A stretch of DNA of 64,000 bases from Phycisphaerales bacterium (GTDB lineage Bacteria; Planctomycetota; Phycisphaerae; SM23-33). Under the pieces are notes generated by a model. It did no database searches. It saw only the letters and a list, made by a program, of their open reading frames with translations, and was not told the DNA's origin. Where the stretch lies: positions 19,055-83,054 of the forward strand of contig JABGPZ010000069.1 in NCBI GenBank assembly GCA_018644725.1. The letters are read 5' to 3'. The translations under genes were made by a program, and so were the position numbers. Shown in pieces: positions 14,451 to 58,204 of this stretch (positions within the stretch are counted from its first letter, which is position 1; every line of letters starts with the position of its first letter).

Positions 14451-15509
14451 ATGCACCCAACTTCACGCTCCCAACTTGGCGATTCCGCTTCGCCGCCACT
14501 TCGTATGTTGTTTTGGGAGACGACGGCACGATGCAATCTTGCGTGTAGCCATTGCCGCCGCCTCGATTTGGAGGCGACCCGTGACGAGTTGACCACCGAC
14601 GAAGCCAAGGCCCTGTTCCGCTCGGCCAAGAATCTCGGCGATCCGGTGGTGGTGTTCTCGGGCGGCGAACCGCTCCAGAGGCCGGACTGGGAACCGTTGG
14701 CCCACTATGCCCATCACGATTTGGGATTGACCATTGCGATGGCGACCAACGGGACACTCGTCGACGCGCAGATCGCCCGGAAGATCGCCGATGCCGGATT
14801 CCGCCGCGTCTCGATCAGTATCGACGGTGCCGATGCCGCGACCCACGATGCCTTTCGCAACCAGGTCGGCGCATTTGATGCCGCGCTCGCGGGTGCCAAA
14901 CACCTTCAGGACGTCGATATCCCTGTGCAGTTCAACGCGACGGTAACGACTCACAACGTCGATCAGCTCGACTCGCTCTATCGCTTTGTGATCGACAAGG
15001 GCGCGGTGGCGTTGCATCTGTTCTTGCTCGTGCCGGTGGGGTGCGGTGTGGAAATTGCCGAGACACAGCAAATCTCCTCCGAGCGCTACGAGCAGGTCCT
15101 TCAGTGGGTCTGCGACCGCCAGCTCGAAAACGAGATTGAATTGCGTGTGACGTGCGGCCCGCACTACTATCGCGTCGCCGCCCAGCGCGGGATCCCCGCC
15201 CAGCGAGGCCGTGGGTGTCTGTGTGGGATCAGCGTGGTCTTCGTCTCGCATCGTGGCGAGGTGTTCCCGTGCGGCTATTTTCCGCTGGACTGTGGGAATG
15301 TGCGAACGACGCCGCTGGACGAAATTTGGCGGACCAACGAGCATTTTTCTTCGCTGCGGGACTATGATCTTCTCGAAGGCCAGTGCGGCCGGTGTGGCTG
15401 GAAAAAAACGTGCGGCGGGTGTCGCGCGCGCGCCTATGCCGCCACGGGCAACTATCTCTCCGAAGAGCCATTCTGCGTGCTCACGGACAACAAGGGCAAC
15501 GCAAAATGA
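14451..15509 (+). CDS. Radical SAM / SPASM-domain protein, AhbD/NirJ/PqqE-like
   Basis: CX3CX2C motif TTARCNLACSHCRR about 25 aa from the N-terminus, so there is no RRE-type leader-binding domain. C-terminal Cys cluster CGRCGWKKTCGGCRARAY (SPASM/twitch). The CNLxCxHC form with a His favours AhbC/AhbD/NirJ over the anaerobic sulfatase maturase. Confidence 0.7.
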   Translation: MHPTSRSQLGDSASPPLRMLFWETTARCNLACSHCRRLDLEATRDELTTDEAKALFRSAKNLGDPVVVFSGGEPLQRPDWEPLAHYAHHDLGLTIAMATNGTLVDAQIARKIADAGFRRVSISIDGADAATHDAFRNQVGAFDAALAGAKHLQDVDIPVQFNATVTTHNVDQLDSLYRFVIDKGAVALHLFLLVPVGCGVEIAETQQISSERYEQVLQWVCDRQLENEIELRVTCGPHYYRVAAQRGIPAQRGRGCLCGISVVFVSHRGEVFPCGYFPLDCGNVRTTPLDEIWRTNEHFSSLRDYDLLEGQCGRCGWKKTCGGCRARAYAATGNYLSEEPFCVLTDNKGNAK

Positions 15510-15826: not shown

Positions 15827-15938
15827 CTCCTTTTCGGAAAGGCGCGTACAGAAAGTAGAACAAAACCATCGGTTTCCTGTTGCAGGACACAGTGGTTTCG
15901 ATACAATGAAGGGCCACTTTTACAAAGGAGAACGGATC

Positions 15939-17765
15939 ATGAAACAACGTATCACATTAGGGATTATGACAATGGTACTGGTCGCCGGAGCATTTCTGGT
16001 GGCACAACCCGCTATACCGACCCCCAAGGCCTATCCCGAGGCCCCGGACATTCTGAAGCACATCCCCTCGGATGTGGCTGGGTTTGTCGTCGCGCCGAAC
16101 CTCAAAGGGACGGGCACGCAATTCCAGCAGTTCATCGTCTCGTCGGGCTTGAATATGATTGTGGCCCAACAGATGCCTGGCACTCTCGACGCGATGGCTG
16201 CGATGACACTGCAAATGGGCGAAGGCTTTAACGTCAACGGCGGCATTGCGATGTTGATTCCCAATCCCAAAGCCAAGGGCTGTGAACTGACCCTCAAGAG
16301 CGAGCCGCCGATGGTCGCACTGGTCGCTGCCGCCCAGGGCGCAAGCATGGCCGACACCTTCAACACCGTCACCAAAGAAGGCGCCGAATCGATGGTCACC
16401 TGGGGCCCCGAGCAAAAGGCGACCTACTGCCGCAAAGTCGGGAACTATTTCGCGCTGGCAGACAAAATCGAATACCTCGACGCGGTTCTCAAAAGCACCG
16501 CCAAGCCCATCACCCTGACCGACGGCCACAAGCGTTGCTATGAAGGCTGCGGCGCGTTCGTGTATGTGGGTGAGTCGATGGTGCCGATCCTGCGCAAAGC
16601 GACGACCCCCGAGCCCGGCCAGGCTGGCCGGATGATGGCAGCCAATCCCGCTACCGTGTTCAGCGGCCTGTGGGGCGAAGAAGTCAAAGCGTTTTCTGTG
16701 GGTGTCCGCATGGGCACCGAAGGCGTGATCTTTGATCTGGCCCAGGAATTCAAGCCCGGCACCGCCCAGGCGAAGATGGCGAAGATGACCAAACCCGTGT
16801 CCACCTCGTTGGTGGCTGGCCTGCCGAGCATGCCGTACGGGATTGTTGTTGGCGGCGTGATGCCTACGGGCCTCGATACGATTGCCGCGAAGGTGGCCGA
16901 CTCGGCCCTCGCCGAAATCACCACGACGCTTACCATGTTGGATATGAAACTCCCCGTGCAAATGCAGGACGACGTCAAGAACCTGTTTGTCAAATCCATC
17001 AGCGAAATCAAGGGAGTCCGCATGGTCATGGGTTCGGGCGGCGAAAGCAGTGAACTGGCGATGGGCTTTGTGATCGACTGCAAAGATTCCGCCAAGCTTC
17101 GCGCGCTGTTGCCCCAGCAGACCCAACTGATAAACGACTTCTTCAATAAGGTCGTTACCGCCAAGTTCCTAGCCGAAGGAGATACCGACAGCGTCGAGGA
17201 ACTTAAAAAGTTCAGCGTAGTGTGCTTGCCCAAGGCACTCCCGACCACCACGGGTACCGCCGACGTGTTGCGATTCAGCCACCCCGACCTCGCGAAGGCT
17301 CTCAAGGACGAATCCGAGATGTTCGACTTGCTCCTCGGGCAGGACCAGATTGAAGTGTATATCACCGAGCGCGGCCAGGACCAGCTCGTCATCAGCTTTG
17401 GTGGCGGCGAAGGGTTCCTCGAAACGCTTCTCGCGAAACCCGTGCTCGACTGCGGCGCGGATGCCGATATCGCCGTGGCCCGCAAGATTCTCGGTAAAAA
17501 TCTCACCGCGGAAGGCTATATCAGCGCCAAGAACATCATGACGATCGTCGACTCGATCACGACCAAGACCGGTAACCCGATTCCCATTACGGCCGCGCAG
17601 TTCACCTGCACCACGCCCGTCGCGTTCGGCAGCACCGTCATTGGGAGCTCCGCCGTTCACCGTTTCTACATTCCTGCTGGCCTTGTCAAAGATGGCATGA
17701 ACATCTTCATGGGCATGATGATGGGCCCCATGGGTCCGGACTCTGGTCCTGACGAAGAATTCTAG
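15939..17765 (+). CDS. Secreted hypothetical protein (~609 aa)
   Basis: AAGGAGAA SD before the ATG at 15939. Signal peptide MKQRITLGIMTMVLVAGAFLVAQPA. Putative promoter TTGCAG-16-TACAAT at 15879-15906. Met/Gly-rich C-terminus. No recognised domain. Confidence 0.55.
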   Translation: MKQRITLGIMTMVLVAGAFLVAQPAIPTPKAYPEAPDILKHIPSDVAGFVVAPNLKGTGTQFQQFIVSSGLNMIVAQQMPGTLDAMAAMTLQMGEGFNVNGGIAMLIPNPKAKGCELTLKSEPPMVALVAAAQGASMADTFNTVTKEGAESMVTWGPEQKATYCRKVGNYFALADKIEYLDAVLKSTAKPITLTDGHKRCYEGCGAFVYVGESMVPILRKATTPEPGQAGRMMAANPATVFSGLWGEEVKAFSVGVRMGTEGVIFDLAQEFKPGTAQAKMAKMTKPVSTSLVAGLPSMPYGIVVGGVMPTGLDTIAAKVADSALAEITTTLTMLDMKLPVQMQDDVKNLFVKSISEIKGVRMVMGSGGESSELAMGFVIDCKDSAKLRALLPQQTQLINDFFNKVVTAKFLAEGDTDSVEELKKFSVVCLPKALPTTTGTADVLRFSHPDLAKALKDESEMFDLLLGQDQIEVYITERGQDQLVISFGGGEGFLETLLAKPVLDCGADADIAVARKILGKNLTAEGYISAKNIMTIVDSITTKTGNPIPITAAQFTCTTPVAFGSTVIGSSAVHRFYIPAGLVKDGMNIFMGMMMGPMGPDSGPDEEF

Positions 17766-17838: not shown

Positions 17839-19134
17839 TCAGGAGAACGACGCGGGATAGCGGCGCGGGAAGGGCTTGTGGCCCTGATAGGTTCGCGCGA
17901 GTTCCATGAAGATTTCCAGGTCGCGTTCGAGGGTGGAGCTGGAGGCGTCGAAGTAAAAATTCCGGATGGGCATGTTGGCGTGGTCGGCCGAGAGGTCCGG
18001 GTAGATCGCCTCGGTGATGATGCCGTTCATGCAGCCAAACGGGCTGATGTCAATGATGCCGTCGGCCCCTTTGGTGTGCAGGTAGGCTGCCTTGCCGGCC
18101 GAGAGGACCATCTCGCCAATGCATCCGCGGGCGGGGAGATAGGTCTCGGCGGGCTCAAGAATTTCGCGGGCGATGTCGTGGGGTTCTTCATAGCCAGCAA
18201 AGTCGTCCGCGAACGGAGCGAGCAGTGCATGTTCGTCGCGACGTTGGAGGGCGTGTTTGAGTTTCGTGCCAAACATCCGAAGGGAGAATCGTTTGCCGCG
18301 TCGGCGAAGGTTGCGTTCGGCGCCCCAGTTGGTGTACCAGACCCATTCGGTGATGTCGCTCAGCCAGCATTCGCCGCCGGCCGCTTCGATGGTCCGGCAG
18401 GCGTCGTGGTTGGAGAAGGCGTTGAGTCGGCAGAAAATTTCTCCCACGACGCCGATCAGCGGCTTTCCTTTTTGATAGTTGGCTGGGACCGCGCGAAACA
18501 GATCGCGGCATCCTTCGAGGGTGTCCACCATCGCACGGAGTTGCTGTTTGGGCGAGCGAGATTCGGCCTCGAGCGCCGCTTCCATACGGTGGAGCGATTC
18601 TTCGAAGGCTTTGTCGGCGCGGCCTGGTTCGGTTTCGTAGGGGCGCGTCTTGAGGAGCATCTTGCGGAGAATGTCGCCAGAGACAATCCCGCGCCAGAGC
18701 ATTCGCACCATCGTCAGCGGACTGGTGGTCGAGGCCTCGCCGAAGGCATCGTACCCGTCCTTGCTGGAGGGCGAAAGGATGGGGATATCGTGGTGGCCCA
18801 GTTCTTCCAGGCGGGTGCGCAGGTAGTGGGAATATTGCCCGAAGCGGCAAGGGCCTTCGGCGGTGGGCATCATGAATGCGGTGGTCTCGGGGGAGTGGGT
18901 TTCGAGGACCGAGAGAAAATCGCCGAGGGTGATTTGTGTGGGGTAGCACTCTTCGCCGCCGGTGTGGAGCAGGCCGAGTTCCATCGCGCGGGGCGTGGTG
19001 ATTTCGCAGGCGCGCGAGTCGATGCCGCAGCCGCGGAACACAGCAGCGAACAGTCGCGCGGCCGAGTGGCTCATGCGCGGAATCCAGAGGGTGCGGCCGG
19101 TCAGGGTGGATGGGGTCGAGGGCATGGCCGACAT
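17839..19134 (-). CDS. 2-hydroxyacyl-CoA dehydratase D-component-like (HGD-D / YjiM-like) Cys-rich protein
   Basis: Conserved Cys contexts (EGPCRFGQY, GEIFCRLNAF, SPFGCMNG) and overall composition are reminiscent of the HGD-D family. The start is taken at MSAMPST (19134), forming an ATG..TAG junction with the upstream MoxR. The track's 19308 start would overlap MoxR. Confidence 0.4.
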   Translation of the reverse strand: MSAMPSTPSTLTGRTLWIPRMSHSAARLFAAVFRGCGIDSRACEITTPRAMELGLLHTGGEECYPTQITLGDFLSVLETHSPETTAFMMPTAEGPCRFGQYSHYLRTRLEELGHHDIPILSPSSKDGYDAFGEASTTSPLTMVRMLWRGIVSGDILRKMLLKTRPYETEPGRADKAFEESLHRMEAALEAESRSPKQQLRAMVDTLEGCRDLFRAVPANYQKGKPLIGVVGEIFCRLNAFSNHDACRTIEAAGGECWLSDITEWVWYTNWGAERNLRRRGKRFSLRMFGTKLKHALQRRDEHALLAPFADDFAGYEEPHDIAREILEPAETYLPARGCIGEMVLSAGKAAYLHTKGADGIIDISPFGCMNGIITEAIYPDLSADHANMPIRNFYFDASSSTLERDLEIFMELARTYQGHKPFPRRYPASFS

Positions 19135-19166
19135 GATACTCAAAACGGGCCCGAAGGGCAAGCGGA

Positions 19167-20144
19167 CTAGAGGGCGCCCAGCGCGGCGAGGGCTTCGGTG
19201 ATCAGGGCATCGGGGGCGAAGCGTTTGGCGTGGGCTTCGAAATTCAGCACCAGTCGGTGGCGCAGTGCGGCCGGGGCGGCGGCATGGACATCGCGCATCG
19301 CCACGCACGGGCGAGCGTCGCAGGCGGCGCGATATTTCGCGGCGAGCAAGATCGCCTGAGCGCCGCGCGGGCTGGGGCCGAATCGCACAAACCGTTTGGT
19401 GTTGTCGGAGGCGTTGGCCGAGGCGGGATGAAGGGAGTCGACGAGTTGGGCGACGGTGTCGAGGATGTTCGAGGCGGCCTGGATTTCGCGCACGAATTGC
19501 TGGAGTTCGAGAATTCTCTGGGGCGTGAGAATGGCCTGGGGCGTGGGGGTCTCGCTGGAGGTGGTGCGGCGAAGAATTTCGGCGATCGCATCGGGTGTGG
19601 GCGAGGGGACCAGGATTTTCAGCCCGAAGCGGTCAAGCTGGGCCTCGGGCAGGGGGTAGGTGCCTTCGAGTTCGATAGGGTTTTGCGTCGCGAACACGCA
19701 GAATGGTTCGGGCAGGGGGTGAGACGTATTGGCGATGGAGACCGTGCGCTCGGACATGGCTTCGAGGATGGCCGACTGGGTTTTGGGCGTGGCGCGATTG
19801 ATTTCGTCCGCCAGCACGAGATGGGAAAACAGCGGGCCTTGTTGGAAGCGGAATGCGCCGGAGTTGGCGTCGTAGAGATTCGTCCCCGTGATGTCGGCGG
19901 GCATCAGGTCGGGGGTGAACTGGATGCGTTTGGAATCCAGGCCGCCCGCCGTCGCCAGCGTGCGCACCAGAAGCGTTTTGCCGAGGCCCGGGTTGCCCTC
20001 GATCAGCGCGTGTGAGCCCGTCAGCAGGCAGGACAGGATGTCGTCGATCACGGAATCGAGACCGACGAGGACCGTTGCGAGTTCATCGCCGAGGCGTTTG
20101 CGGTCGGCAGCGAAGGCGTCGAGTTGGGCTTGGGCATCGCTCAC
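19167..20144 (-). CDS. MoxR-family AAA+ ATPase
   Basis: Walker A GNPGLGKT, Walker B LVLADEINRA, sensor region TQNPIELEGTYPLPEAQLDRF. The track's TTG start at 20234 overlaps the thioesterase gene, so the GTG at 20144 is preferred. Start is uncertain. Confidence 0.75.
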   Translation of the reverse strand: MSDAQAQLDAFAADRKRLGDELATVLVGLDSVIDDILSCLLTGSHALIEGNPGLGKTLLVRTLATAGGLDSKRIQFTPDLMPADITGTNLYDANSGAFRFQQGPLFSHLVLADEINRATPKTQSAILEAMSERTVSIANTSHPLPEPFCVFATQNPIELEGTYPLPEAQLDRFGLKILVPSPTPDAIAEILRRTTSSETPTPQAILTPQRILELQQFVREIQAASNILDTVAQLVDSLHPASANASDNTKRFVRFGPSPRGAQAILLAAKYRAACDARPCVAMRDVHAAAPAALRHRLVLNFEAHAKRFAPDALITEALAALGAL

Positions 20145-20178
20145 TTGGATGGGGTTCTTTCGGTAGTGACGAGGTCGG

Positions 20179-20598
20179 TTATGGTTTGGATTCGGGGTCG
20201 AGTTGGAGCTGCATCGATTCGGGGATCGGTGCAAGCGCGCCCGCAGAATCGATGCACGCGAGGGTGGTCTTGGCGGTTGCGATCGTTACGCCCGTTTCTT
20301 TGTGGCGCAGATGATAGTCGTGTTCGATCCGGCAGGTTTTCTGCCGAGTGATGGTCGTCTCAAGCTCCAGCACATCGTCATAGCGCGCCGGCGAGCGATA
20401 GTCCGCACTGCAGCGCACCACCACAAACAGGACCCCTTTGGCCTCAAGGTCCGCATAGCGGATTCCCTGCTTGCGGAGCAACTCCGTGCGCCCCATTTCA
20501 AAGTAAACCCAATAGCGGCTGTGATGTAGCGCACCCATTTGGTCCACCTCCGCATAGCGGACGCGAATTTCGATCGTGTCAGAGACAATTGTGTTCAT
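20179..20598 (-). CDS. Acyl-CoA thioesterase, 4HBT/YbgC family (hotdog fold)
   Basis: IEIRVRYAEVDQMGALHHSRYWVYFEMGRTELL is typical of YbgC-like thioesterases. 139 aa. Confidence 0.7.
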   Translation of the reverse strand: MNTIVSDTIEIRVRYAEVDQMGALHHSRYWVYFEMGRTELLRKQGIRYADLEAKGVLFVVVRCSADYRSPARYDDVLELETTITRQKTCRIEHDYHLRHKETGVTIATAKTTLACIDSAGALAPIPESMQLQLDPESKP

Positions 20599-20685
20599 GA
20601 AGTTCTCGTGGTCAAATGTTTGCTCACTGCAACGCGAGCGATGGAATCATTTTATCAGAAAACAGGGGAGGGAAAAGGTTTTTTC

Positions 20686-20730
20686 TTGACTTTTTGAAAC
20701 TAATGATTCAAATAGATATTTGAAACGGAT
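20686..20730. promoter_or_regulatory. Candidate TetR operator in the divergent promoter region
   Basis: Inverted repeat TTTGAA-n8-TTCAAA plus a second TTTGAAAC copy, 30-70 nt upstream of the tetR-family gene. Confidence 0.3.
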
Positions 20731-20759: not shown

Positions 20760-21383
20760 ATGAGCGAACCTAAATCGAAACAACCCACCAAGCAACGTCT
20801 CCTTCAGGCGGCGTGTGAAGTGTTTGCCGAGAACGGCTATCGCGGCGCGACGGTGGCGGAAATTTGCAAACGGGCCGAAGCGAACATTGCGGCGGTGAAC
20901 TATCATTTCGGGGACAAAGAGCGGTTGTATATTGCGGCCTGGCGCAGAGCGCTGGATGTGGCGATTGAGAAATATCCTCTTGATGGTGGTGTGCCACACG
21001 ACGCGCCGCCCGAAGAGCGCTTGCATGGCCGAATTGAATCGTTGATTCGCAAGACGATGGACGAGGGCGAAGTTGGGCATATGATGCGCTTTTTGGTCGC
21101 GGAAATTTCCATGCCTTCGGGGAAGGTTCTCGAAGCATTGACCGAGACGGTTCAGCCGCTTCGTCGGACCATGCTGGAGTTGGTTCGCGAGTTGGCGGGC
21201 GAGGAGATGAGCGATCAGGATGTGGTTATTATCAGCACCAGTATCTACAACATTTGCAGCGGGCTGGTTCTTCGCCCGGAGATGCGGAAAAACTTTTTCG
21301 GGAAAGTGGGCATCGACCAAGACATGATTATCGACACGGCCACGCGGCTGGTGCTGGGCGGGATCAAGGAGATGTGCAAGTGA
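20760..21383 (+). CDS. TetR/AcrR family transcriptional regulator
   Basis: N-terminal HTH (RLLQAACEVFAENGYRGATVAEICKRAEANIAAVNYHFGDKERLY). GGGAGGAAC SD. Sits directly upstream of an RND efflux operon. Confidence 0.85.
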   Translation: MSEPKSKQPTKQRLLQAACEVFAENGYRGATVAEICKRAEANIAAVNYHFGDKERLYIAAWRRALDVAIEKYPLDGGVPHDAPPEERLHGRIESLIRKTMDEGEVGHMMRFLVAEISMPSGKVLEALTETVQPLRRTMLELVRELAGEEMSDQDVVIISTSIYNICSGLVLRPEMRKNFFGKVGIDQDMIIDTATRLVLGGIKEMCK

Positions 21384-22795
21384 GATTGAGTTCTCTCATT
21401 TTGTGTGGATTGCTTTTGATGGGGGGCTGCTGGAGTCCGTCATCGGACGTGGTGTCGCAGAACCCGTCTCCTACAGCGGGAGCTGCAAAGGCCCAGTGCA
21501 ATTGGGTCCGCAGTTTCAACGACCCGGAGCTGGAGAAGTTGGTTGCTCTGGCGATCGGAAAAAATTTCACCCTGCGCAGTGCGTGGTCGCGACTGGCTCA
21601 GGCGCGGGCGCTGGCTCGCAAGGCCGGTAGCGAGCAGGGGGTGATTCTCAATGGGACCGTTGGCGCGTCGCGAGGCATTTCCCGGATGGACACGCCCGCT
21701 GGCCGGAATACGGTCAGTGCGTCGAAGGTTTCGTTGGGGCTGGCGGCGAGTTATGAAGTGGATGTGTGGGGCCGTGTTGCGGCAACCGTCGAGGCCGCCG
21801 AGCGGGATGTCGAGGCCAGCGAACAGGATTTGCGTGCGGCTGCGATTACGCTTTCGGCTGACGTGGCGTTGACGTGGTATCGCCTGATCGAGCAGACTCA
21901 GCAGCTTGGGTTGCTCGACGCTCAAGTCAAAACAAACCAGGATTCACTCGATTTGATCACCCTGCGGTTTCGCAGTGGTCAGATCGGCGGGACCGATGTT
22001 CTCCAGCAGAAACAGACCCTCGAGCGCACTCGCGGTGATCGCGAGGCGGTGCGCGCGGCGATTAAGACCTATCGCCATCAGCTCGCTGTGCTGACCGGCC
22101 AACCTCCCACGGCCAAGCTGGGTGTGGCCGCGAAGGCGCTCCCGACGATCGCACCGCTACCGCCGGGGGGGATGCCATCGGGCTCTCTCACGCGGCGTCC
22201 AGATTTGCGCGCGGCCGAGCGGAGTGTCGCCGCAGCCGACCGACGTGTTGCGGCGGCGATGGCCGACCGTTTCCCGAAGATCAGCCTGACGATGAACGCT
22301 TCGACCGATGCCGAGCGCATCCGCGATTTGTTCGATAACTGGGCAGCGAATCTTGCGGCGAATCTGATCGCACCGATTCTTGATGGTGGCCGTCGCGAGG
22401 CCGAGGTCGACCGCACCATGGCCGTACTCGAAGAACGCGTGAATCTGTATGGCGCCAAAACGCTCGGCGCCTTGCGCGAAGTCGAAGATGCCCTCGTCCG
22501 TGAACAGCATCAGGACGATTACCTCAAAAGTTTATCCGAGCAGTTGCGCCTCTCGAAGCGGGCCACCGCCGACATTCGCGAAAACTACCTCAAGGGCGCC
22601 GAGACGTTCCTGCGCTATCTCACGACCCTGTTGCAGCATCAGGAACTCCAGCGGCGCGTATTGCGCTCGGAATTGCAGAAGATTGAATTTCGCATCGCGC
22701 TTCACCGTGCGATCAGCGGCGGCTGGGAGCTGACTTCTCCCGCGGCCGACCCGACACCTCCCACCAACCCTACAACGGAATCGAAATTGAAATGA
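21380..22795 (+). CDS. RND efflux outer-membrane factor lipoprotein (NodT/TolC family)
   Basis: GTG start overlapping the tetR stop (GTGA). Lipoprotein signal VRLSSLILCGLLLMGGC. Two-repeat OMF architecture. AAGGAGA lies 7 nt upstream. Confidence 0.75.
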   Translation: MRLSSLILCGLLLMGGCWSPSSDVVSQNPSPTAGAAKAQCNWVRSFNDPELEKLVALAIGKNFTLRSAWSRLAQARALARKAGSEQGVILNGTVGASRGISRMDTPAGRNTVSASKVSLGLAASYEVDVWGRVAATVEAAERDVEASEQDLRAAAITLSADVALTWYRLIEQTQQLGLLDAQVKTNQDSLDLITLRFRSGQIGGTDVLQQKQTLERTRGDREAVRAAIKTYRHQLAVLTGQPPTAKLGVAAKALPTIAPLPPGGMPSGSLTRRPDLRAAERSVAAADRRVAAAMADRFPKISLTMNASTDAERIRDLFDNWAANLAANLIAPILDGGRREAEVDRTMAVLEERVNLYGAKTLGALREVEDALVREQHQDDYLKSLSEQLRLSKRATADIRENYLKGAETFLRYLTTLLQHQELQRRVLRSELQKIEFRIALHRAISGGWELTSPAADPTPPTNPTTESKLK

Positions 22796-24117
22796 AAGAG
22801 ACATCGTCCCATCCTCCCAGTTTTGCTACGGTTCTGATTCGCCTGCTCCTCGTCGCCATCATTGTCCTCGGCGGAGTTCTGGTGGCCAAGCGGTTTATCG
22901 ACTCCAAGCAAGCGCCCAAGCGCAAGCAGCGCGAAGCCGACGTGCGCCTCGTCGAGGTGATGACCATCGCCACCCAACAAGCGACCGTGACCCTGCCGGC
23001 GATGGGGCTGGTGGCGGAAGCGGAAGAAATCGACCTCACCTCGCAAGTCGAGGGTAAGCTGCTGAGCGTGTCCCCGTCGTTGGTGGCGGGGGGGCTTCTT
23101 CGCACGGGTGAGGAAGTGGCGCGAGTGGACCCGGCCGACTATACATTGATCATTGCACAGCGCGAAAGCGACGTCGCGCGTGCCGAACGGGCGCTCAAGG
23201 CCGAGCAGGGCCACCAGCGCATCGCTCAACGCGAATATGAAATGCTCAAGGAACACCTCAAAGACGAAGATCGCGAACTGGTGTTGCGAATGCCTCAACT
23301 CAAAGAAGCCCGCGAAGCGCTCAAGGCCGCGCAGTCTCGCCTGGCCGACGCCAAGCTGGATGTGGCGCGCACGACGATCACCAGCCCCTGCAACGCGGTC
23401 GTCCGGAGCGAATCGGTCGGCGTGGGGACACTGGTGCGGAATGGCACGGTGCTCGCCAAGCTGGGGGATTCGGATGTCTATTGGGTGCTGGTGAGCATGC
23501 CGGTGGACGAGTTGCGCTTTATTTCCGTGCCGGGATTCAACGCGCCCAAGGGTGCGACGGGTTCGGAGGTCCGCGTGGAATATGATGCGGGCTGGGGCAA
23601 AGGAAAGTATCGCCTCGGCCGCGTGAGTCACCTTCTGGGAGAGCTGGAACCCAAGGGGCGCATGGCGCGTCTGGTGGTGACGGTCAACGATCCGCGCTGT
23701 CTGCAACCCGAAAACAAGGACAAGCCGCAACTGCTGCTCCGTGCCTATGTGCGAGTAAAAATCACCGGAAACACACTGCCAAATGTTGTGCGTTTGCCGC
23801 GACGAGTGCTGCGCGAGAACAATACGGTCTGGCTGGTGTCTGACAACAAATTGCGAATCGTTCGCATTCAACCGATTTTCAAAACTCGGGATGAGGTGTG
23901 GATTGTTGCGCGCGAGGGAGGCGAGCCGATTTCGGCCGATCCAATGAAGGGGGTCTGGGTTCCTGATTCATCGCAGCCGCCTGCGCGCGTGGTTGTGACG
24001 AACCTTTCGGCCCCGGTTGACGGGATGCCGCTGCGTGTGGAGGGAGAGGAGCCCAAGGCCAAGACCCCCTCCGCCAAACCTGCTCCCGCGGCCAAGCCTG
24101 CACGGAGTGAGCAATGA
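22792..24117 (+). CDS. RND efflux periplasmic adaptor (membrane fusion protein, HlyD family)
   Basis: ATGA overlap with the OMF gene. N-terminal TM anchor, coiled-coil hairpin (EAREALKAAQSRLADAKLDVARTTITSP), beta-barrel/MP domains. Confidence 0.8.
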   Translation: MKETSSHPPSFATVLIRLLLVAIIVLGGVLVAKRFIDSKQAPKRKQREADVRLVEVMTIATQQATVTLPAMGLVAEAEEIDLTSQVEGKLLSVSPSLVAGGLLRTGEEVARVDPADYTLIIAQRESDVARAERALKAEQGHQRIAQREYEMLKEHLKDEDRELVLRMPQLKEAREALKAAQSRLADAKLDVARTTITSPCNAVVRSESVGVGTLVRNGTVLAKLGDSDVYWVLVSMPVDELRFISVPGFNAPKGATGSEVRVEYDAGWGKGKYRLGRVSHLLGELEPKGRMARLVVTVNDPRCLQPENKDKPQLLLRAYVRVKITGNTLPNVVRLPRRVLRENNTVWLVSDNKLRIVRIQPIFKTRDEVWIVAREGGEPISADPMKGVWVPDSSQPPARVVVTNLSAPVDGMPLRVEGEEPKAKTPSAKPAPAAKPARSEQ

Positions 24118-27100
24118 GCGACGAGCTGCACAAGTTGTCGCGAAGTGACCGGCGCGGGGCGGTGTCCTGGATGGCGGGGCACTCTGTCGCTGCCAACCTG
24201 GTCATGCTGATCTGTCTGATCGGTGGGCTTTTCATGGCCAATAAGGTCAAGCAGGAAGTGTTCCCGGATGTGACGATGGATGTGGTTCGCGTGACCGTTC
24301 CGTTTCCCGCCTCGGTCCCCGCAGACGTGGAAAAGGGGATTCTCGAACCGATTGAAAATGCCGTCAAGGGTCTCGATGGTGTCAAGAAAATCACGTCCAC
24401 TGCCCGCGAGGGCTCGGGCGAAGTGATGATTGAGATGGAGGTTGGCGAGGATCTGCAAAAGTTGCTCCAGGATGTCAAGAACGAGGTAGACCGGATTCGG
24501 ACGTTCCCACCTGCGGCCGAGCGCCCGCGAGTGTCGGTGATGTCCCGGCGGCGACCTGCGATGTCGATTGCACTGTATGGGGACGCGTCGGAAAAAGTAT
24601 TGCGCGAGCTTGCCGAGTCGTTCCGGGACGAGCTTCAGCTTCACAAAGATATTACCCAGGTCGAACTCGAAGGGGTGCGCGGGGTTGAAATTTCCATCGA
24701 AGTGCCGCAGGAAAATCAGCGGACCTATAAAATGACCCTCGAGGACATCGCCCGTCAGCTTCGCGGCGCGTCGGTCGACTTGACGGGCGGGAGCATCAAA
24801 ACGCGCGGTGGCGAGTTCTTGGTGCGGATGAAAGAACGCCGCGATTATGGGCTGGAATTTGAGCAGCTTCCGGTGATTACCACCACCGACGGGTCGCAGG
24901 TGTTGCTGGAGAAAATCGCAACCGTGGAGGATACGTTTGAGGACGTAGACAGTCATGCGACCTATAACGGCAAGCGCGCGGTGATGCTGCGTGTCCAGCG
25001 CGTTGGTGAGCAGACGCCGATCGAGGTGACCGATGCCGCGCGTGAGGTGATCGAAAAGTTGCGGCTGCCACCTGGGGTGAATGTGGCGGTGGTGAACGAT
25101 TGGAGCAAGATTTATCGCCAGCGGTTGGAGATGCTGATGCGCAACGGCGCGTTGGGTCTGGTGCTGGTTCTGTGTGTGCTGGGATTGTTTCTCGAAGTGC
25201 GCCTCGCGTTTTGGGTGATGCTGGGGATTCCGATTTCCTTTGCCGGATCGCTTTTGATTTTGCCGATGCTCGGCGTATCGATCAACATGGTGTCGATGTT
25301 CGCGTACATCATTGCGCTGGGGATTGTGGTGGACGACGCGATTGTGGTCGGCGAAAATATCTATCATCACCATCAGAGCGGCAAGCCATTTCTCAAGGCG
25401 GCCATTTTGGGTACGCGCGAAGTGGCCATGCCGGTGACGTTCAGCATTCTCACGAATATCGTGACGTTTGTGCCGCTGGCGATGGTGCCCGGGCCGATGG
25501 GAAAAATTTTCTACTGCATCCCGGCCGTGGTCGTGACGGTGTTCCTGATCTCGCTTGCCGAATCCCTGTTCGTACTCCCCGCGCACCTCGGTCACCAACA
25601 AGACCGCCGCCGCTGGGGGCTCATGGCATGGATTCACGCCCGCCAACAAGCCTTCAGCCACGGTGTGCGCAATTTTATCCGCAAGGTCTATTCCCCGTTT
25701 TTGCATTGGACGCTCACGCACCGCTATATCACCATTTCCGTAAGCCTCGCCGTGTTGATCTCGGTCATCGGCTTTATTATGAGCGGACGAATGGGCATGG
25801 AGTTGTTCCCCAAGGTCGAGGCCGACTTCGCTCAGTGCACGGTGACGCTGCCCTATGGCGTGAGCATCGAATCCACCGACGCGGTCGCCAAGCGCCTTCT
25901 CGATGGCGCGCAGGAGGTCATTGGCGAAACCAAACGCCCCGAGCTGCTTAAGGGAGTCTATGCCAATGTCGGCAAGGGCGGCAATCACAATTTGAAGGTC
26001 CAGGTGTACTTGGCCGATCCGGAAATTCGAAACGGCATTATGAGTACGGACGAATTTACCAATCGCTGGCGCAAGGTGGTGGGTGAAATCCCCGGCCTGG
26101 AGTCGATGCGATATGAATCGGACGCGGGCGGGCCTGGCAGCGGCGCGGCGATCACTGTGGAGCTGAGCCACCGCCGGATGGAAGTTCTCGACACTGCCAG
26201 CCGGGATCTGGCGGATACGCTGGCGGGATATCCGCTGTGCCGTGACGTCAACGATGGTTATCAGCCTGGCAAGCGCCAGTACGAATACAGTGTCAACGCC
26301 GAGGGCGAGAGTCTCGGGCTTAACGCCGATGAGATTTCCCGCCAGCAGCGCCACGCGTTTTATGGCTGTGAGGTCAAGCGCCAGCAACGCGGCCGGGACG
26401 AGGTCAAGATTATGGTCCGCCGTCCCAAGGCCGAGCGCGTCAGCGAGTATGATCTGGAGCAGATGATGCTGTGGCCCCCCGGGGGCGGCGAGGGTGTGAT
26501 GCTGCGCGAAGTGGCGACGCCTCGGCCGGGGAGGGCGCATACGACGATTGAGCGACGCCAGGGCCGACGGCGCGTGAATGTGACGGCCGACGTCGTTCCG
26601 CGGAGCGAGGCGGGGAAAATTCTCGACGATATGAAAGAAAAAATCCTCCCCAAGCTCGTCGCCGACTATCCCGGCCTGCAGTACAGCTTCGAGGGCAAGC
26701 AGGCCGACATGCGCGAGTCGATGGAGTCGCTGATGGTTACATTCCCCATCGCAATGCTGGTGATTTATGCGCTGTTGGCGATCCCGTTCCGCAGCTATAC
26801 CCAGCCGCTGGTGGTGATGGTGTCGATTCCGTTCGGTATCGTCGGCGCGGTGCTTGGCCACGTTGTGATGGGCTATTCGCTGTCCATGATTTCGATGTTC
26901 GGCATCGTCGCGCTTTCGGGTGTGGTCGTCAACGATTCGCTGGTGTTGATCGAATTTGCCAACCGGCGCGTGCTTGGCGGGCAGACCCGGTTCGATGCCG
27001 TCCGCGAGGCGGGCGTTCAGCGTTTCCGTGCGATTATCCTCACGACGCTGACAACATTCTTCGGGCTGATGCCGATGATCTTCGAAACGTCTCGCCAGGC

Positions 27101-27248
27101 AAAGTTCCTGATCCCCATGGCGATCAGTCTGGGCTTCGGGATTTTGTTTGCGACGATCATCACGCTGGTGATCGTGCCGAGCCTGTACCTCGCCGTGGAA
27201 GACATGAAACGGTGCATGGGGGCGTTGCGCCGCGGAATTTGGCGGTAA
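24114..27248 (+). CDS. RND efflux permease (AcrB/HAE1 family, 1044 aa)
   Basis: ATGA overlap with the adaptor gene. 12-TM RND topology with two large periplasmic loops and conserved TM4 (IALGIVVDDAIVVGENI) and TM10 regions. Confidence 0.9.
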   Translation: MSDELHKLSRSDRRGAVSWMAGHSVAANLVMLICLIGGLFMANKVKQEVFPDVTMDVVRVTVPFPASVPADVEKGILEPIENAVKGLDGVKKITSTAREGSGEVMIEMEVGEDLQKLLQDVKNEVDRIRTFPPAAERPRVSVMSRRRPAMSIALYGDASEKVLRELAESFRDELQLHKDITQVELEGVRGVEISIEVPQENQRTYKMTLEDIARQLRGASVDLTGGSIKTRGGEFLVRMKERRDYGLEFEQLPVITTTDGSQVLLEKIATVEDTFEDVDSHATYNGKRAVMLRVQRVGEQTPIEVTDAAREVIEKLRLPPGVNVAVVNDWSKIYRQRLEMLMRNGALGLVLVLCVLGLFLEVRLAFWVMLGIPISFAGSLLILPMLGVSINMVSMFAYIIALGIVVDDAIVVGENIYHHHQSGKPFLKAAILGTREVAMPVTFSILTNIVTFVPLAMVPGPMGKIFYCIPAVVVTVFLISLAESLFVLPAHLGHQQDRRRWGLMAWIHARQQAFSHGVRNFIRKVYSPFLHWTLTHRYITISVSLAVLISVIGFIMSGRMGMELFPKVEADFAQCTVTLPYGVSIESTDAVAKRLLDGAQEVIGETKRPELLKGVYANVGKGGNHNLKVQVYLADPEIRNGIMSTDEFTNRWRKVVGEIPGLESMRYESDAGGPGSGAAITVELSHRRMEVLDTASRDLADTLAGYPLCRDVNDGYQPGKRQYEYSVNAEGESLGLNADEISRQQRHAFYGCEVKRQQRGRDEVKIMVRRPKAERVSEYDLEQMMLWPPGGGEGVMLREVATPRPGRAHTTIERRQGRRRVNVTADVVPRSEAGKILDDMKEKILPKLVADYPGLQYSFEGKQADMRESMESLMVTFPIAMLVIYALLAIPFRSYTQPLVVMVSIPFGIVGAVLGHVVMGYSLSMISMFGIVALSGVVVNDSLVLIEFANRRVLGGQTRFDAVREAGVQRFRAIILTTLTTFFGLMPMIFETSRQAKFLIPMAISLGFGILFATIITLVIVPSLYLAVEDMKRCMGALRRGIWR

Positions 27249-30521: not shown

Positions 30522-31526
30522 TTACGAGTTCTGAGATTCCCAGAGTGCTTCGTCAGTCGAACAATAGCGCACCCGTGATTTTTTATATTCCGTCGCCGAT
30601 TCCAAAAAGCATTCGTCGAGGGGGCAGATGCGTTCGCGCAATTCCGCGAGTACGGTTTGTGCCTGTTGCTCGTCGCGGGCGTGGACCATGGTATAGAGGT
30701 CGTACGGCCAGTCGGGATAGCTCACGCGCCGATAGCAATGGCTCACGGCGGGGTGTTCGGCGGCGCGCGCAGCGACCTGCGGCGAGGGGGTTTGCCAAAC
30801 GGCCATGACGTTGTGTCCCGCGCCTGTGCGGCGATGGTGGAACACGGCGGCATAGCGGCGCATCACTCCGCGATCGCGCAGGTCGTTGGCGATCGTCAGA
30901 AGGCGGTCTGTCGTGAGCGTCGGGTGGGTTGCGCAAAGCGCGTCAAACGGCGCAGCCGTCGCGGGCAGGTCGCGCTGGAGAAGTCCGACGGCCTGGATCA
31001 GTTCGTCGTTGAGTTCGATGGGTGGCGCGTCGTTCGGCGGTGGGGCGTCCGAGGCGTGTTGGGGCGTGTCGGCGGAAAAGTCGAATCGCACGGCCAGCTT
31101 GAGCGTTTCGATGGTCGGCAGGAGGTGATAGCATTCCACGCCAGCGAGTTCGGCTAGACGCGCGACGGTGGGCTCGAGCCCGAGGGCAGAATTGCCCGAG
31201 ACCGCGACGGTGAACCAGAGGCTGTAGCGCTCGTGGGTCCGCGCATAGCAATGGCTCACGCCAGGGTGAGCGGCGACGATCTGTCCGGCGGCGTCGGGAT
31301 TGGCCCCCGCCCCGAAGGCAACAAGCGCTTGGCGATATCCCAGAGCGGGTGGGTGAAAAATTGCGCTGATGTCGCGGATCACACCGCTTTGGCGCAGGGA
31401 GCTCACGCGCTGAATCACGTCTTGTTCTGTCGCGTCAAGCCGCTCGGCAAGGATCGCAAATGGACGCTCGCAAAGTGGAATGTCGCGTTGAAGCTGAGCC
31501 AAGATGGTCTTGTCGAGATCGTCCAC
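30522..31526 (-). CDS. Tandem Lrp/AsnC-like domain protein, siroheme decarboxylase-like (fused AhbA/AhbB or NirD/L-type)
   Basis: Two consecutive about 160-aa modules, each starting with an HTH (LDKTILAQLQRDIPLCERPFAILAERLDATEQDVIQRV and LNDELIQAVGLLQRDLPATAAPFDALCATH). GTG start at 31526 with an AAGGA SD right after the pyrD stop. The track's start at 31625 overlaps pyrD. Confidence 0.5.
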   Translation of the reverse strand: MDDLDKTILAQLQRDIPLCERPFAILAERLDATEQDVIQRVSSLRQSGVIRDISAIFHPPALGYRQALVAFGAGANPDAAGQIVAAHPGVSHCYARTHERYSLWFTVAVSGNSALGLEPTVARLAELAGVECYHLLPTIETLKLAVRFDFSADTPQHASDAPPPNDAPPIELNDELIQAVGLLQRDLPATAAPFDALCATHPTLTTDRLLTIANDLRDRGVMRRYAAVFHHRRTGAGHNVMAVWQTPSPQVAARAAEHPAVSHCYRRVSYPDWPYDLYTMVHARDEQQAQTVLAELRERICPLDECFLESATEYKKSRVRYCSTDEALWESQNS

Positions 31527-31534
31527 GGGAGTCC

Positions 31535-32458
31535 TTATTCGAGTGCGCCGATGATTTCGTTGATCGACGTGCAGCCGTGGCGCGTGAGGTATTCGTTGAT
31601 GGTGTCGCGGATTTCGACGATGCACGCAGGGTCGACAAACAGGGCCGTGCCGATCGCGAGGCCCGTCGCGCCCGCGAGGAGAAATTCCAGCGCGTCGCGC
31701 CCGGTTTGGATGCCGCCCATGCCGATGATCGGGATGCCCGCGGGCTTGGCGACCTGGGTGTAGACGCGGTGGACCATGTGGACGGCGACGGGTTTGATTG
31801 CCGGTCCCGAAAGCCCGCCCGTGCGGTTGGCGAGAACGGGTTTGCGGGTTTCGACGTCGACGACCATGGCCGTGAGCGTGTTGATGAGGCTCAGCGCGTC
31901 GGCCCCGCCCTCGACAGCGGCGGCCGCAATGGCGGTGATGTCGGTGACGTTGGGGCTGAGCTTGACGATGAGCTTGTTCTTGCCGCAGGCGGCCTTGACC
32001 GCGCGGGTGATTTCGGTTGCACTGGCGGGGTCGGTGCCGAACTGAATCCCGCCGGCCTTGACGTTCGGACAGCTGATGTTTAGCTCCAACGCCTTCACGA
32101 CATCCACGTTCGCGAGTGCTTCGGTCACTTGGACATAGTCGTCGATGTTCGTGCCAGCGATGTTGACGAACACCGGAAGGTTCAGTTCTTCCAGAAGCGG
32201 AATTTTCTCGTCGAGGAAGCGTTCGAGCCCGACATTCGCCAGGCCGATCGCGTTGAGCATCCCGCTGCGCGTTTCAACCACGCGCGGGTAGGGGTTGCCT
32301 TCGCGCGGTGCGACGGAGATGGACTTGGTGACGAACGCGCCGAGGGTGCGCAAGTCGACGAAGTCGGCATATTCGTTGGCATAGCCGCAGGTGCCGCTGG
32401 CGGTCATCAGGGGGTTGGCGAGTTCAATTCCGGCGATGTTGACGCTGAGATCAGGCAT
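31535..32458 (-). CDS. pyrD: Dihydroorotate dehydrogenase, class 1B catalytic subunit-like
   Basis: LANPLMTASGTCGYANEY...ISCPNVKAGG...LSGPAIKP...GGIQTGRDALEFLLAGA is the DHOD TIM-barrel signature. Confidence 0.85.
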   Translation of the reverse strand: MPDLSVNIAGIELANPLMTASGTCGYANEYADFVDLRTLGAFVTKSISVAPREGNPYPRVVETRSGMLNAIGLANVGLERFLDEKIPLLEELNLPVFVNIAGTNIDDYVQVTEALANVDVVKALELNISCPNVKAGGIQFGTDPASATEITRAVKAACGKNKLIVKLSPNVTDITAIAAAAVEGGADALSLINTLTAMVVDVETRKPVLANRTGGLSGPAIKPVAVHMVHRVYTQVAKPAGIPIIGMGGIQTGRDALEFLLAGATGLAIGTALFVDPACIVEIRDTINEYLTRHGCTSINEIIGALE

Positions 32459-57288: not shown

Positions 57289-57382
57289 GGCGGCAGTATA
57301 CACGATTGGCGCGCAAAGTGGGGGATGGAAAATAAATGGTTGTGCGGCTATGCTATAGGGTCCTGAAAGGAAGGATGAATTC

Positions 57383-58204
57383 ATGACATCAACAGAACGA
57401 CGGATAGCGGTGGTCACGGGCGCCTCGGCCGGGTTGGGCGCGGAGTTTTCGCGCCAGCTTGCAGCGCGCGGAGAGTGTGTGTGGCTGGTCGCGCGGCGAG
57501 AAGATCGCCTCGAAGCGCTGGCCGAGGAGATCCGTGCGGCGGGTGGCGCGTGTGAGGTGGTCGTGTGCGATTTGACCGACGATGTGCAACTTGCGGCGCT
57601 GTGCGATCGCATTGCCGCCGAGGAAGGACTGTCCGTGCTGGTGAACAACGCCGGGTTCGGCAGCAAGTCGCGCTTTGCGGACTCGACCGTCGGCCCGCAG
57701 GATGCGATGGCCAGGCTGCATGTGCTGGCGACGGTGCGGCTGACGCATGCGGCGCTGGGGCGGATGGGCCAGAATGGCCGGGGACGGATTTTGAATGTAG
57801 CGTCGGTGGCGGGCTTCTTCCAGAGCCCCACGGACGTGATGTATTGCTCGACCAAGGCGTGGATGATCTCGTTCACCGAAGGGCTTTGTCTGGAGCTGGA
57901 CGGAATGGGCGTCTCGGCGACGGTGGTGTGTCCCGGATTTACGATCACCGAGTTTCACGATGTGCTGGGCGTATCGCGTTCGACGGTGCCCAAGCATCAT
58001 TGGCTTAAGGCCGACTATGTCGTCGCCAAGGCGCTCGCGGCGATGGATCGAGGGAAGTGGATTTGTATTCCGCATTGGCGATACAAGCTATATGCGATGA
58101 TCGGCAACGTGTTGCCCAAGTGGATTCTTCATCCGTTGTCGCGCCGTCGTCGTCGACGCAATGACGCGATTCGCGCGAACGAAACACCGACCCCATCGGA
58201 TTGA
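57383..58204 (+). CDS. Short-chain dehydrogenase/reductase (SDR)
   Basis: TGASAGLG cofactor motif, NNAG, catalytic YCSTK (YxxxK). Confidence 0.85.
   Translation: MTSTERRIAVVTGASAGLGAEFSRQLAARGECVWLVARREDRLEALAEEIRAAGGACEVVVCDLTDDVQLAALCDRIAAEEGLSVLVNNAGFGSKSRFADSTVGPQDAMARLHVLATVRLTHAALGRMGQNGRGRILNVASVAGFFQSPTDVMYCSTKAWMISFTEGLCLELDGMGVSATVVCPGFTITEFHDVLGVSRSTVPKHHWLKADYVVAKALAAMDRGKWICIPHWRYKLYAMIGNVLPKWILHPLSRRRRRRNDAIRANETPTPSD

Follow-up and report, generated by a model that had tools for sequence, protein, structure and literature searches.

The cysteine-rich gene that closes a three-gene, minus-strand array in the 64-kb stretch of Phycisphaerales DNA analyzed here (the window) probably specifies the small iron-sulfur subunit of an enzyme family already known to form ether lipids, that of PlsA/PlsR and Ger. 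PlsA/PlsR and Ger constitute a lipid-specific branch of the benzoyl-CoA reductase/2-hydroxyacyl-CoA dehydratase (BCR/HAD) superfamily. For the array as a whole, we favor a PlsR-like subunit of a glycerolipid ester reductase that depends on ATP; the MoxR ATPase and thioesterase genes that precede it would be rearranged neighbors. The gene is a new member of a known family, placed in a clade-specific gene order.

If the analogy with PlsA/PlsR and Ger holds, the small subunit would pair with a partner of about 1050 aa, by way of the latter's DUF2229 ‘Red1’ module. This partner would inject low-potential electrons through its two ASKHA ATPase domains, and the complex would convert the acyl ester at sn-1 of a membrane lipid into an alkenyl or alkyl ether by reduction. 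Which of the two ethers results is unpredictable from sequence (PMC11868695). The Listeria plsA/plsR orthologs appear to be active anaerobically (PMC9702350).

Genes, spacers, and conservation of the array

The three open reading frames are co-directional. The first (20179..20598, minus strand) encodes a 139-aa hotdog (4HBT) acyl-CoA/ACP thioesterase of the YbgC/FadM type, matched by Pfam 4HBT_2 (3.5e-18) and 4HBT (3.7e-13) and lying above the cut-off of the YbgC/FadM model TIGR00051 (90.2 vs 68.7 bits). It fails the Tol-Pal YbgC equivalog TIGR02799 (81.8 bits vs a cut-off of 141.35), and no tol/pal genes adjoin it in a Pfam scan of the flanking ORFs. The second (19167..20144, minus strand) encodes a MoxR-class AAA+ ATPase with AAA_3 (2.4e-60), AAA_lid_2 (6.5e-13), and bpMoxR (5e-9) matches, a Walker A motif reading GNPGLGKT and a Walker B motif reading LADEINRA; read from the GTG at 20144, the protein is 325 aa long and identical to database protein P0121, which has the same length. 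The first-pass annotation had named a YbgC-type thioesterase and a MoxR ATPase on this strand, and the Pfam and NCBIfam models agree. The third gene (17839..19125, minus strand) encodes a putative small subunit, PlsR-like (‘Red2’), of a glycerolipid ester reductase of the PlsA/PlsR-Ger type. Its earlier description as cysteine-rich holds in a modest sense, with 10 cysteines in 428 aa, four of them invariant in the family.

Read from the sequence, the thioesterase-MoxR spacer is 34 nt and the distance from MoxR to an ATG at 19134 is 32 nt, correcting earlier figures of 35 and 33 nt. Relatives do not share the alternative ATG at 19134. They keep the ATG at 19125, from which the protein is 428 aa long and the spacer 41 nt.

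A consensus scan of the region returned two promoter-like sites where 0.6 ± 0.7 would be expected. One lies in the MoxR-small gene spacer (19133..19161, minus strand; TTGCCC, 17 nt, TATCAT) and ends 7 nt upstream of the conserved ATG. The sister lineages L171 (TTGCCT/TATCCT) and L084 (TTGCCT/TATGAT) keep the two hexamers, 17 nt apart, at a dS of about 0.8, with part of the spacer varying. This block may well be a promoter for the small gene, which probably keeps a promoter of its own. Scanning the same spacer revealed no terminator-like site, so co-transcription of MoxR and the small gene is possible; a GCCC-TTC-GGGC hairpin considered as a terminator was rejected, as it is not conserved in L171 or L084 while both hexamers are kept. 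The second site, found by the consensus scan only, is located 5′ of the thioesterase (20588..20615, minus strand; TTGACC, 16 nt, CACAAT).

Upstream of the array and divergent from it is a gene for a TetR/CecR-like regulator (20760..21383, plus strand; TetR_N 2.9e-13, CecR_C 1.9e-10), whose product is 69% identical and whose position beside an OEP gene is syntenic in L171/L172. The spacer between it and the thioesterase carries a perfect, operator-like 8+2+8 palindrome, TTCAAATA-TC-TATTTGAA (20707..20724), partly conserved in L171, to which the TetR protein may bind. The regulator gene heads an operon of outer-membrane-factor, fusion-protein, and RND efflux genes.

The thioesterase-MoxR-small gene order persists in three lineages, those of the window, L171/L172, and L084, of which L084 stops short of the thioesterase. 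Across these lineages the trio proteins are 75–81% identical, with dS of 0.8–1.4 and dN/dS of 0.14–0.22, indicating purifying selection; the L171 thioesterase is 78% identical (dN/dS 0.14) and its gene overlaps MoxR by 4 nt. Such persistence, with short spacers, exceeds what random juxtaposition strictly requires. As far as the compared sequences go, the order appears confined to one narrow Phycisphaerales clade. That clade forms a long branch with only two close relatives and about 60% identity to all other family members, and in a neighbor-joining tree the window protein and that of L084 adjoin the Tes-linked clade in leaf order.

The small protein and its family

The small protein has the two-domain alpha/beta fold common to HadB/C, BzdN/O, and DCCP, the last of these, a homodimeric superfamily member, being among its top fold matches. 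It matched none of the Pfam and NCBIfam models even at E = 10, HGD-D (PF06050) and DUF2229 (PF09989) included, and its family profile retrieved nothing relevant from PDB sequences. With these searches empty, the assignment rests on fold together with tblastn and BLASTP. A likeness to the HGD-D and BadF/BadG proteins persists, as the fold is HAD-like. The view of the first-pass annotation that this is an HGD-D-like protein is accordingly upheld by the fold and not by the Pfam HGD-D model, and of the domains it had anticipated for the array AAA_3 and 4HBT were matched and HGD-D was not. Precomputed PF09989 matches occur in about one-quarter of the close homologs listed, that of P0004 being marked weak.

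In a BLASTP alignment, residues 15–414 of the small protein correspond to residues 1008–1400 of a 1475-aa Listeria protein (E 2e-35, 27% identity), which carries two BcrAD_BadFG domains and DUF2229 on its N-terminal side. C63, C96, and C368 match cysteines of this C-terminal Listeria module. The same three residues and C235 are invariant across 34 sequences, comprising the window protein and 33 close homologs, C235 being missing from the Listeria module; these four are candidate ligands of a [4Fe-4S] cluster. The family motifs GEECYP, GPCRFGQY, GEIFCRLN, and SPFxCMNG are all kept in the window protein. Comparison of the small-subunit family with the large-partner family (Red1 module) by hhalign gave a match (E 0.009, probability 4.5%) too weak to establish paralogy, which pairs GEECYP with AEPCFP and GPCRFGQY with HLCPWGQT.

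Partners of the family and alternative readings

Neighbors were counted by tblastn over 162 related loci more distant than the sister lineages (1.52 Mb fetched). Below 54% identity, a protein of about 1050 aa with two BcrAD_BadFG ASKHA activase domains and DUF2229 is encoded directly upstream of the small gene at 60 of 63 loci; the large protein of L112 exceeds the activase domain model cut-off (267 vs 125). At identities of at least 54%, that is among the closest Phycisphaerae, the gene directly downstream is instead that of the radical SAM enzyme Tes (57 of 62 loci), and the neighbor in L001 exceeds the NCBIfam Tes equivalog cut-off (476.9 vs 450). The position of the small gene directly upstream of Tes in these relatives fits a pathway to branched tetraethers or ether lipids. 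Another radical SAM/SPASM gene is also clustered with the small gene and Tes at most Phycisphaerae loci examined.

Genomes with a Tes-linked small gene can carry the large partner elsewhere: P0346 (L128 contig) lies about 10 kb away and P0349 (L162 contig) about 16 kb away, neither having a small gene of its own. The first-pass annotation was right that the usual ASKHA activase is not adjacent, and tblastn detected neither an ASKHA-type activase protein nor a Tes homolog anywhere in the 64-kb window. Since the partner is often unlinked in related Phycisphaerae, its absence here is expected and is no sign of MoxR replacing it; the gene for the large partner most likely lies outside the window. 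Two candidates in the window were set aside: a 1053-aa ORF at 54787-57948 considered as the large partner is a U32 peptidase, and a radical SAM/SPASM gene at 14451-15509 considered as a lipid-cluster remnant resembles AhbD, the window also having a fused AhbA/B gene (30522-31625). A supposed fused ORF of 1363 aa in L074 has no Pfam match. In the window clade the small gene would have been relocated behind the thioesterase-MoxR pair, next to the TetR/efflux locus.

The MoxR gene is likewise without its customary partner, as had been noted before. The gene downstream is the PlsR-like small gene rather than DUF58/VWA, Pfam showed no VWA or DUF58 domain among those window ORFs that were scanned, tblastn found no DUF58 homolog in the whole window, and the next-closest MoxR homologs (57–59% identical) are also without DUF58. 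Across the fetched flanks of the 162 loci, MoxR occurs near the small gene at two and a thioesterase at one, frequencies that we estimate, without formal calculation, to be at about chance level. Neighbor conservation extends to the two closest sister lineages and largely fails elsewhere. One of the MoxR cases, L110, is an independent juxtaposition in which MoxR has DUF58-TgpA partners of its own.

That MoxR might act as a chaperone or activator in place of an ASKHA protein, maturing or remodeling the HAD-like iron-sulfur protein while the thioesterase works on the product, was the essence of the first-pass annotation, and we judge it distinctly unlikely. Retention of the order under purifying selection on all three genes, spacers that are short and free of predicted terminators, the lack of a DUF58/VWA client-adaptor near MoxR, and the L110 juxtaposition would all suit this idea, but they are set against the rarity of either neighbor at other loci, the canonical partners of the L110 MoxR, the conserved promoter-like block in front of the small gene, and an ASKHA partner that is routinely unlinked in sister Phycisphaerae. 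The MoxR protein has four cysteines and no Fe-S motif; it therefore cannot supply electrons such as the low-potential one delivered by superfamily activases. Nor does a radical-type acyl-CoA enzyme fit the characterized relatives PlsA/PlsR and Ger, which use glycerolipid esters rather than acyl-CoA (PMC13159169; PMC9702350), so that a thioesterase releasing the product, as had been supposed, has no obvious role. The family has a canonical ASKHA partner. Activation of the small protein by MoxR is unsupported, though conceivable. A related and quite improbable scenario is that a PlsR-like subunit was uncoupled from ASKHA and Tes and recruited to a thioesterase-MoxR module, in which the VWA-less MoxR aids cluster insertion or assembly.

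We also consider it unlikely that the small subunit is a neofunctionalized orphan that lost its linkage to both Tes and the large partner and now works alone on another substrate, perhaps as a homodimeric Fe-S reductase resembling DCCP and possibly under TetR regulation. The long branch, the DCCP fold match, the absence of C235 from the Listeria module, and the operator-like palindrome are compatible with such a protein, yet all four family motifs are retained, C235 is invariant in 34 of 34 aligned members and hence beyond this clade, DCCP itself needs an ASKHA reductase, and nothing positive points to another substrate. A last alternative, that the YbgC-type thioesterase and the PlsR-like subunit are co-expressed for membrane-lipid remodeling with MoxR as a bystander, appears highly unlikely. 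YbgC is reported to interact with ACP and phospholipid-synthesis enzymes, tying its family to phospholipid metabolism. The thioesterase and small gene are syntenic in the window and L171/L172, L084 ending before the thioesterase; however, translational coupling ties the thioesterase to MoxR and not to the small gene, and a thioesterase is found near the small gene at only one of the 162 other loci. The PlsR family, too, is tied to phospholipid metabolism (PMC9702350). The PlsR-like glycerolipid reductase subunit remains our preferred reading, in which the MoxR and thioesterase genes probably became neighbors through a lineage-specific rearrangement and would be at most putative functional partners.

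Comparison with known systems

The trio itself carries little weight, as the habit of Phycisphaerae of placing the large ASKHA + DUF2229 partner at another locus accounts for the ‘missing’ activase and the MoxR link is clade-specific. If that link were true, an Fe-S radical enzyme would join the short list of MoxR clients, and BCR/HAD-family proteins matured with the aid of MoxR would form a client class new to these ATPases. Bacterial branched tetraether lipids underpin widely used palaeotemperature proxies, and a compact gene cluster would for that reason offer a testable handle on the organisms that make them. Physical clustering of the family with a genuine Tes tetraether synthase at most Phycisphaerae loci examined agrees with the PlsAR-Tes-GrsA/B route, so far proposed for branched tetraethers solely from the co-occurrence of homologs in genomes (PMC10087280).

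Compared with MoxR-DUF58(-TgpA/VWA) modules, the window MoxR shares the AAA_3 core and lid and is followed by no DUF58, VWA, or TgpA gene, whereas L110 has a canonical MoxR-DUF58-TgpA set. HadBC/HgdAB with HadI/HgdC and the class I benzoyl-CoA reductases BzdNO and MbdNO are only 9–14% identical to the small protein, which the Pfam HGD-D model does not match; they act on CoA thioesters, and a gene of its own, next to theirs, encodes the activase. DCCP, which works with DCCP-R, binds an [8Fe-9S] cluster through six cysteines, in contrast to the four that are invariant in the small-protein family.

A close likeness in layout is to PlsA/PlsR, split in Clostridium perfringens (CPE1194/CPE1195) and fused as PlsA in Listeria and Enterococcus. 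Most relatives of the window gene share the split layout, with a small subunit of about 370–430 aa, and the window protein aligns over its full length with the fused Listeria C-terminal module, three cysteines being kept. It differs in its low identity to that module, in its fourth invariant cysteine, in having MoxR and a thioesterase as neighbors, and in a large partner that is neither adjacent nor within 64 kb. Ger (Thermotoga maritima Tmari_0479; Desulfatibacillum alkenivorans) follows the same logic, with two BcrAD_BadFG activase domains and DUF2229 followed by C-terminal reductase/dehydratase-like modules (PMC13159169), and its homologs, like those of Tes and GrsA, have been reported in Phycisphaerae, in the case of Ger among other Planctomycetota (PMC11868695). 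Whereas Ger is a single polypeptide, the window gene would represent its C-terminal module only, unlinked from the rest.

The minus-strand trio and its putative transcription signals

Three co-directional ORFs lie on the minus strand of the window, bearing out the arrangement described in the first-pass annotation; that annotation gave the gaps as 35 and 33 nt, and the spacers are indeed short but were read from the sequence as 34 nt and then 32 nt. The leading gene (20179-20598) encodes a 139-aa hotdog thioesterase that matches Pfam 4HBT_2 (3.5e-18) and NCBIfam TIGR00051, the YbgC/FadM subfamily (90.2 bits; cut-off 68.7), and fails the NCBIfam equivalog model for Tol-Pal YbgC. It is followed by a 325-aa MoxR AAA+ ATPase (19167-20144; Pfam AAA_3, 2.4e-60, and AAA_lid_2), which, read from the GTG at 20144, is the database protein P0121 and carries four cysteines and no cluster motif. 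The small gene (17839-19125) encodes a cysteine-rich protein of 428 aa when read from ATG 19125, the start conserved among relatives; ATG 19134 is not conserved. Convergent to it is a gene for a 619-aa protein (15906-17765) that has a hydrophobic segment at its N terminus and matches no Pfam family.

A consensus scan of the region returned two promoter-like sites, against 0.6 ± 0.7 expected, both within the two intergenic spacers, and no minus-strand terminator within the trio region. The site between MoxR and the small gene (TTGCCC, 17 nt, TATCAT) retains both hexamers and their spacing in the related loci L171 and L084, with part of the spacer varying. It stops 7 nt short of the conserved ATG. 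This suggests that the small gene may have its own, possibly leaderless, transcript, though transcription may also read through from MoxR. Beyond the thioesterase and downstream of a TetR gene, further plus-strand genes (21254-27248) were assigned to an outer-membrane factor, a fusion protein of the membrane and an RND-type pump of 1044 aa, from ORF sizes, the look of the sequences and an OEP Pfam match in the syntenic L171. Between the thioesterase and the divergent TetR/CecR-like gene lies a perfect palindrome, TTCAAATA-TC-TATTTGAA (20707-20724). It is partly kept in L171 and may serve as an operator for the trio as well as for the efflux operon.

The small-protein family and its genomic partners

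The small protein had no matches in Pfam, NCBIfam or PDB sequences with the threshold relaxed to E=10; the earlier description of it as HGD-D-like is correct by fold, without a match to the Pfam model. More than 4000 relatives were recovered, the best 120 of which are all ~430 aa and 57-62% identical to it, with named sources nearly all Phycisphaerae and PF09989 (DUF2229) carried by about a quarter. Four cysteines are invariant in an alignment of 34 sequences, within the motifs GEEC63YP, GPC96RFGQY, GEIFC235RLN and SPFxC368MNG.

Loci were collected from species-representative genomes (80) and metagenomes (80), and their neighbours were scored by tblastn. The 162 non-redundant related loci counted (1.52 Mb) comprise 73 below 54% identity, from Acidobacteriota, Thermoleophilia, NC10, deltaproteobacteria and others, and 89 at or above 54%, the named ones being Phycisphaerae or other Planctomycetota. 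The family is genomically coupled to a large partner and to Tes. The large partner, a protein of ~1020-1070 aa with two BcrAD_BadFG (ASKHA activase) domains and DUF2229 (Pfam), lies directly upstream in 60 of 63 loci with enough flank below 54% identity and in 5/48 at or above it; this order is the split PlsA/PlsR layout. A Tes-like radical SAM protein (~630 aa, with an HMPTM zinc ribbon) is encoded directly downstream in 57 of the 62 closer loci and in 1/67 of the more distant ones, three more of which have it elsewhere in the flank; that of L001 passes the NCBIfam equivalog 'tetraether lipid synthase Tes' (476.9 vs 450 bits). A neighbour-joining tree places the window protein, together with the relative that is 81% identical to it, immediately beside the Tes-linked clade in its leaf order.

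The PlsR-like gene is followed directly by Tes in most Phycisphaerae loci (L001 7001-10848; L002 7001-11925; L112 341-9318; most of L089-L168), a cluster for which the literature consulted yielded no description. It brings together the steps of the pathway put forward for branched tetraether lipids of bacteria, namely PlsAR, Tes and GrsA/B (PMC10087280). In L001, L002 and L004-L007, Tes is followed by a 170-aa ORF, a radical SAM/SPASM gene of 566 aa, or both. The large partner precedes the small gene in L007, L011, L019, L112 and L138, and Tes-linked genomes still have it, but unlinked: two such proteins, P0346 and P0349, are encoded ~10 and ~16 kb from the small genes of L128 and L162 respectively, both adjoining pheT and neither with a small gene of its own. 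At L175 (4728-13859) and L176 (6001-9147) the large gene likewise adjoins pheT, at the 10-16 kb distance from the small gene; in L175, flotillin (FloA) and NfeD genes lie between the two. A DNA methylase gene directly follows the large gene in L176 and L007, and because in L007 it stands between the large and small genes, insertions are suggested to have broken up an ancestral large-small-Tes cluster.

Neither the large partner (four query proteins) nor Tes nor DUF58 was matched by tblastn in the 64-kb window, in agreement with the earlier statements that the usual activase is absent nearby and that MoxR lacks its canonical partner. A 1053-aa ORF (54787-57948) was rejected as the large partner, being an unusually long member of the U32 peptidase/collagenase family that contains DUF3656. 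A radical SAM/SPASM gene (14451-15509) was likewise set aside as unrelated to the trio: it is AhbD-like (385 bits vs the 500-bit equivalog cut-off) and belongs with alternative haem synthesis. Together with a fused AhbA/AhbB siroheme decarboxylase gene (30522-31625), it points to an alternative siroheme-dependent haem pathway in the organism.

The MoxR and thioesterase neighbours

Conservation of the trio as neighbours, which the first-pass annotation had named as a check, was found in a narrow clade but not family-wide. In L171 and L172 (GCA_030635185.1) all three genes are present, 78% (thioesterase), 79% (MoxR) and 75% (small gene) identical to the window, and in L171 (4456-5852) thioesterase and MoxR share 4 nt (ATGA), an overlap implying that these two are translationally coupled. 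The TetR and outer-membrane factor genes adjoin the thioesterase in the same order there, on the strand opposite the trio. L084 shares MoxR (77% identical), the small gene (81%) and, convergent to the latter, the gene for the 619-aa protein (50%). Purifying selection acts on all three trio genes (dN/dS 0.14-0.22 at dS 0.8-1.4). Across the 162 loci, tblastn placed MoxR in the flanks of two and the thioesterase in one; L110 has the small gene upstream of a canonical MoxR-DUF58-TgpA operon and L049 has MoxR 3 kb away. By rough estimate, such a frequency is about that expected by chance, given how common the gene is. The MoxR homologues next in similarity (57-59% identical; L173 6001-7586, L174 6001-7537) occur in the conserved context rpsP-trmD-rplS-UPF0102-TatD-MoxR, with DUF58 and VWA absent, and look as if they form an 'orphan' subfamily of MoxR within Phycisphaerae. 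Both are followed by a gene for a ~160-aa protein without a Pfam family.

The trio had been tentatively read as a MoxR ATPase maturing or activating a radical-type acyl-CoA enzyme, with the thioesterase releasing the product. That mechanism is unsupported, because the canonical partner of the family is an ASKHA protein, unlinked in this lineage, because characterised relatives act on lipids rather than on acyl-CoA, and because the adjacency of MoxR and thioesterase is confined to one shallow clade. As the trio persists in that clade, a real link of the small gene to MoxR or the thioesterase retains a small probability; MoxR would act on the small protein as an assembly chaperone at most.

Predicted role and relation to plasmalogen synthases

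The small protein is homologous to the C-terminal module of PlsA. In a tblastn search of annotated records, 93% of its length aligned with the C-terminal region of a Listeria monocytogenes protein of 1475 aa (BLASTP: 27% identity, E 2e-35, residues 15-414 with 1008-1400), which shares C63, C96 and C368 and lacks C235. N-terminal to this module the Listeria protein has two BcrAD_BadFG domains and DUF2229, the architecture of a fused PlsA-type plasmalogen synthase, and Listeria has been reported to carry plsA/plsR orthologues, apparently active anaerobically (PMC9702350, PMC12838417).

In other organisms, PlsA/PlsR and Ger have been shown to reduce the acyl ester at sn-1, yielding an ether (PMC13159169, PMC9702350). 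By analogy, the small subunit would take part in this reduction, pairing with the DUF2229 module of the large partner, whose ASKHA domains would pass ATP-driven low-potential electrons to it. More speculatively, C235 could serve as a fourth ligand, giving a fully Cys-ligated, electron-relay cluster. Among the characterised systems, Ger has the same layout as the fused PlsA-type protein of Listeria (PMC13159169).
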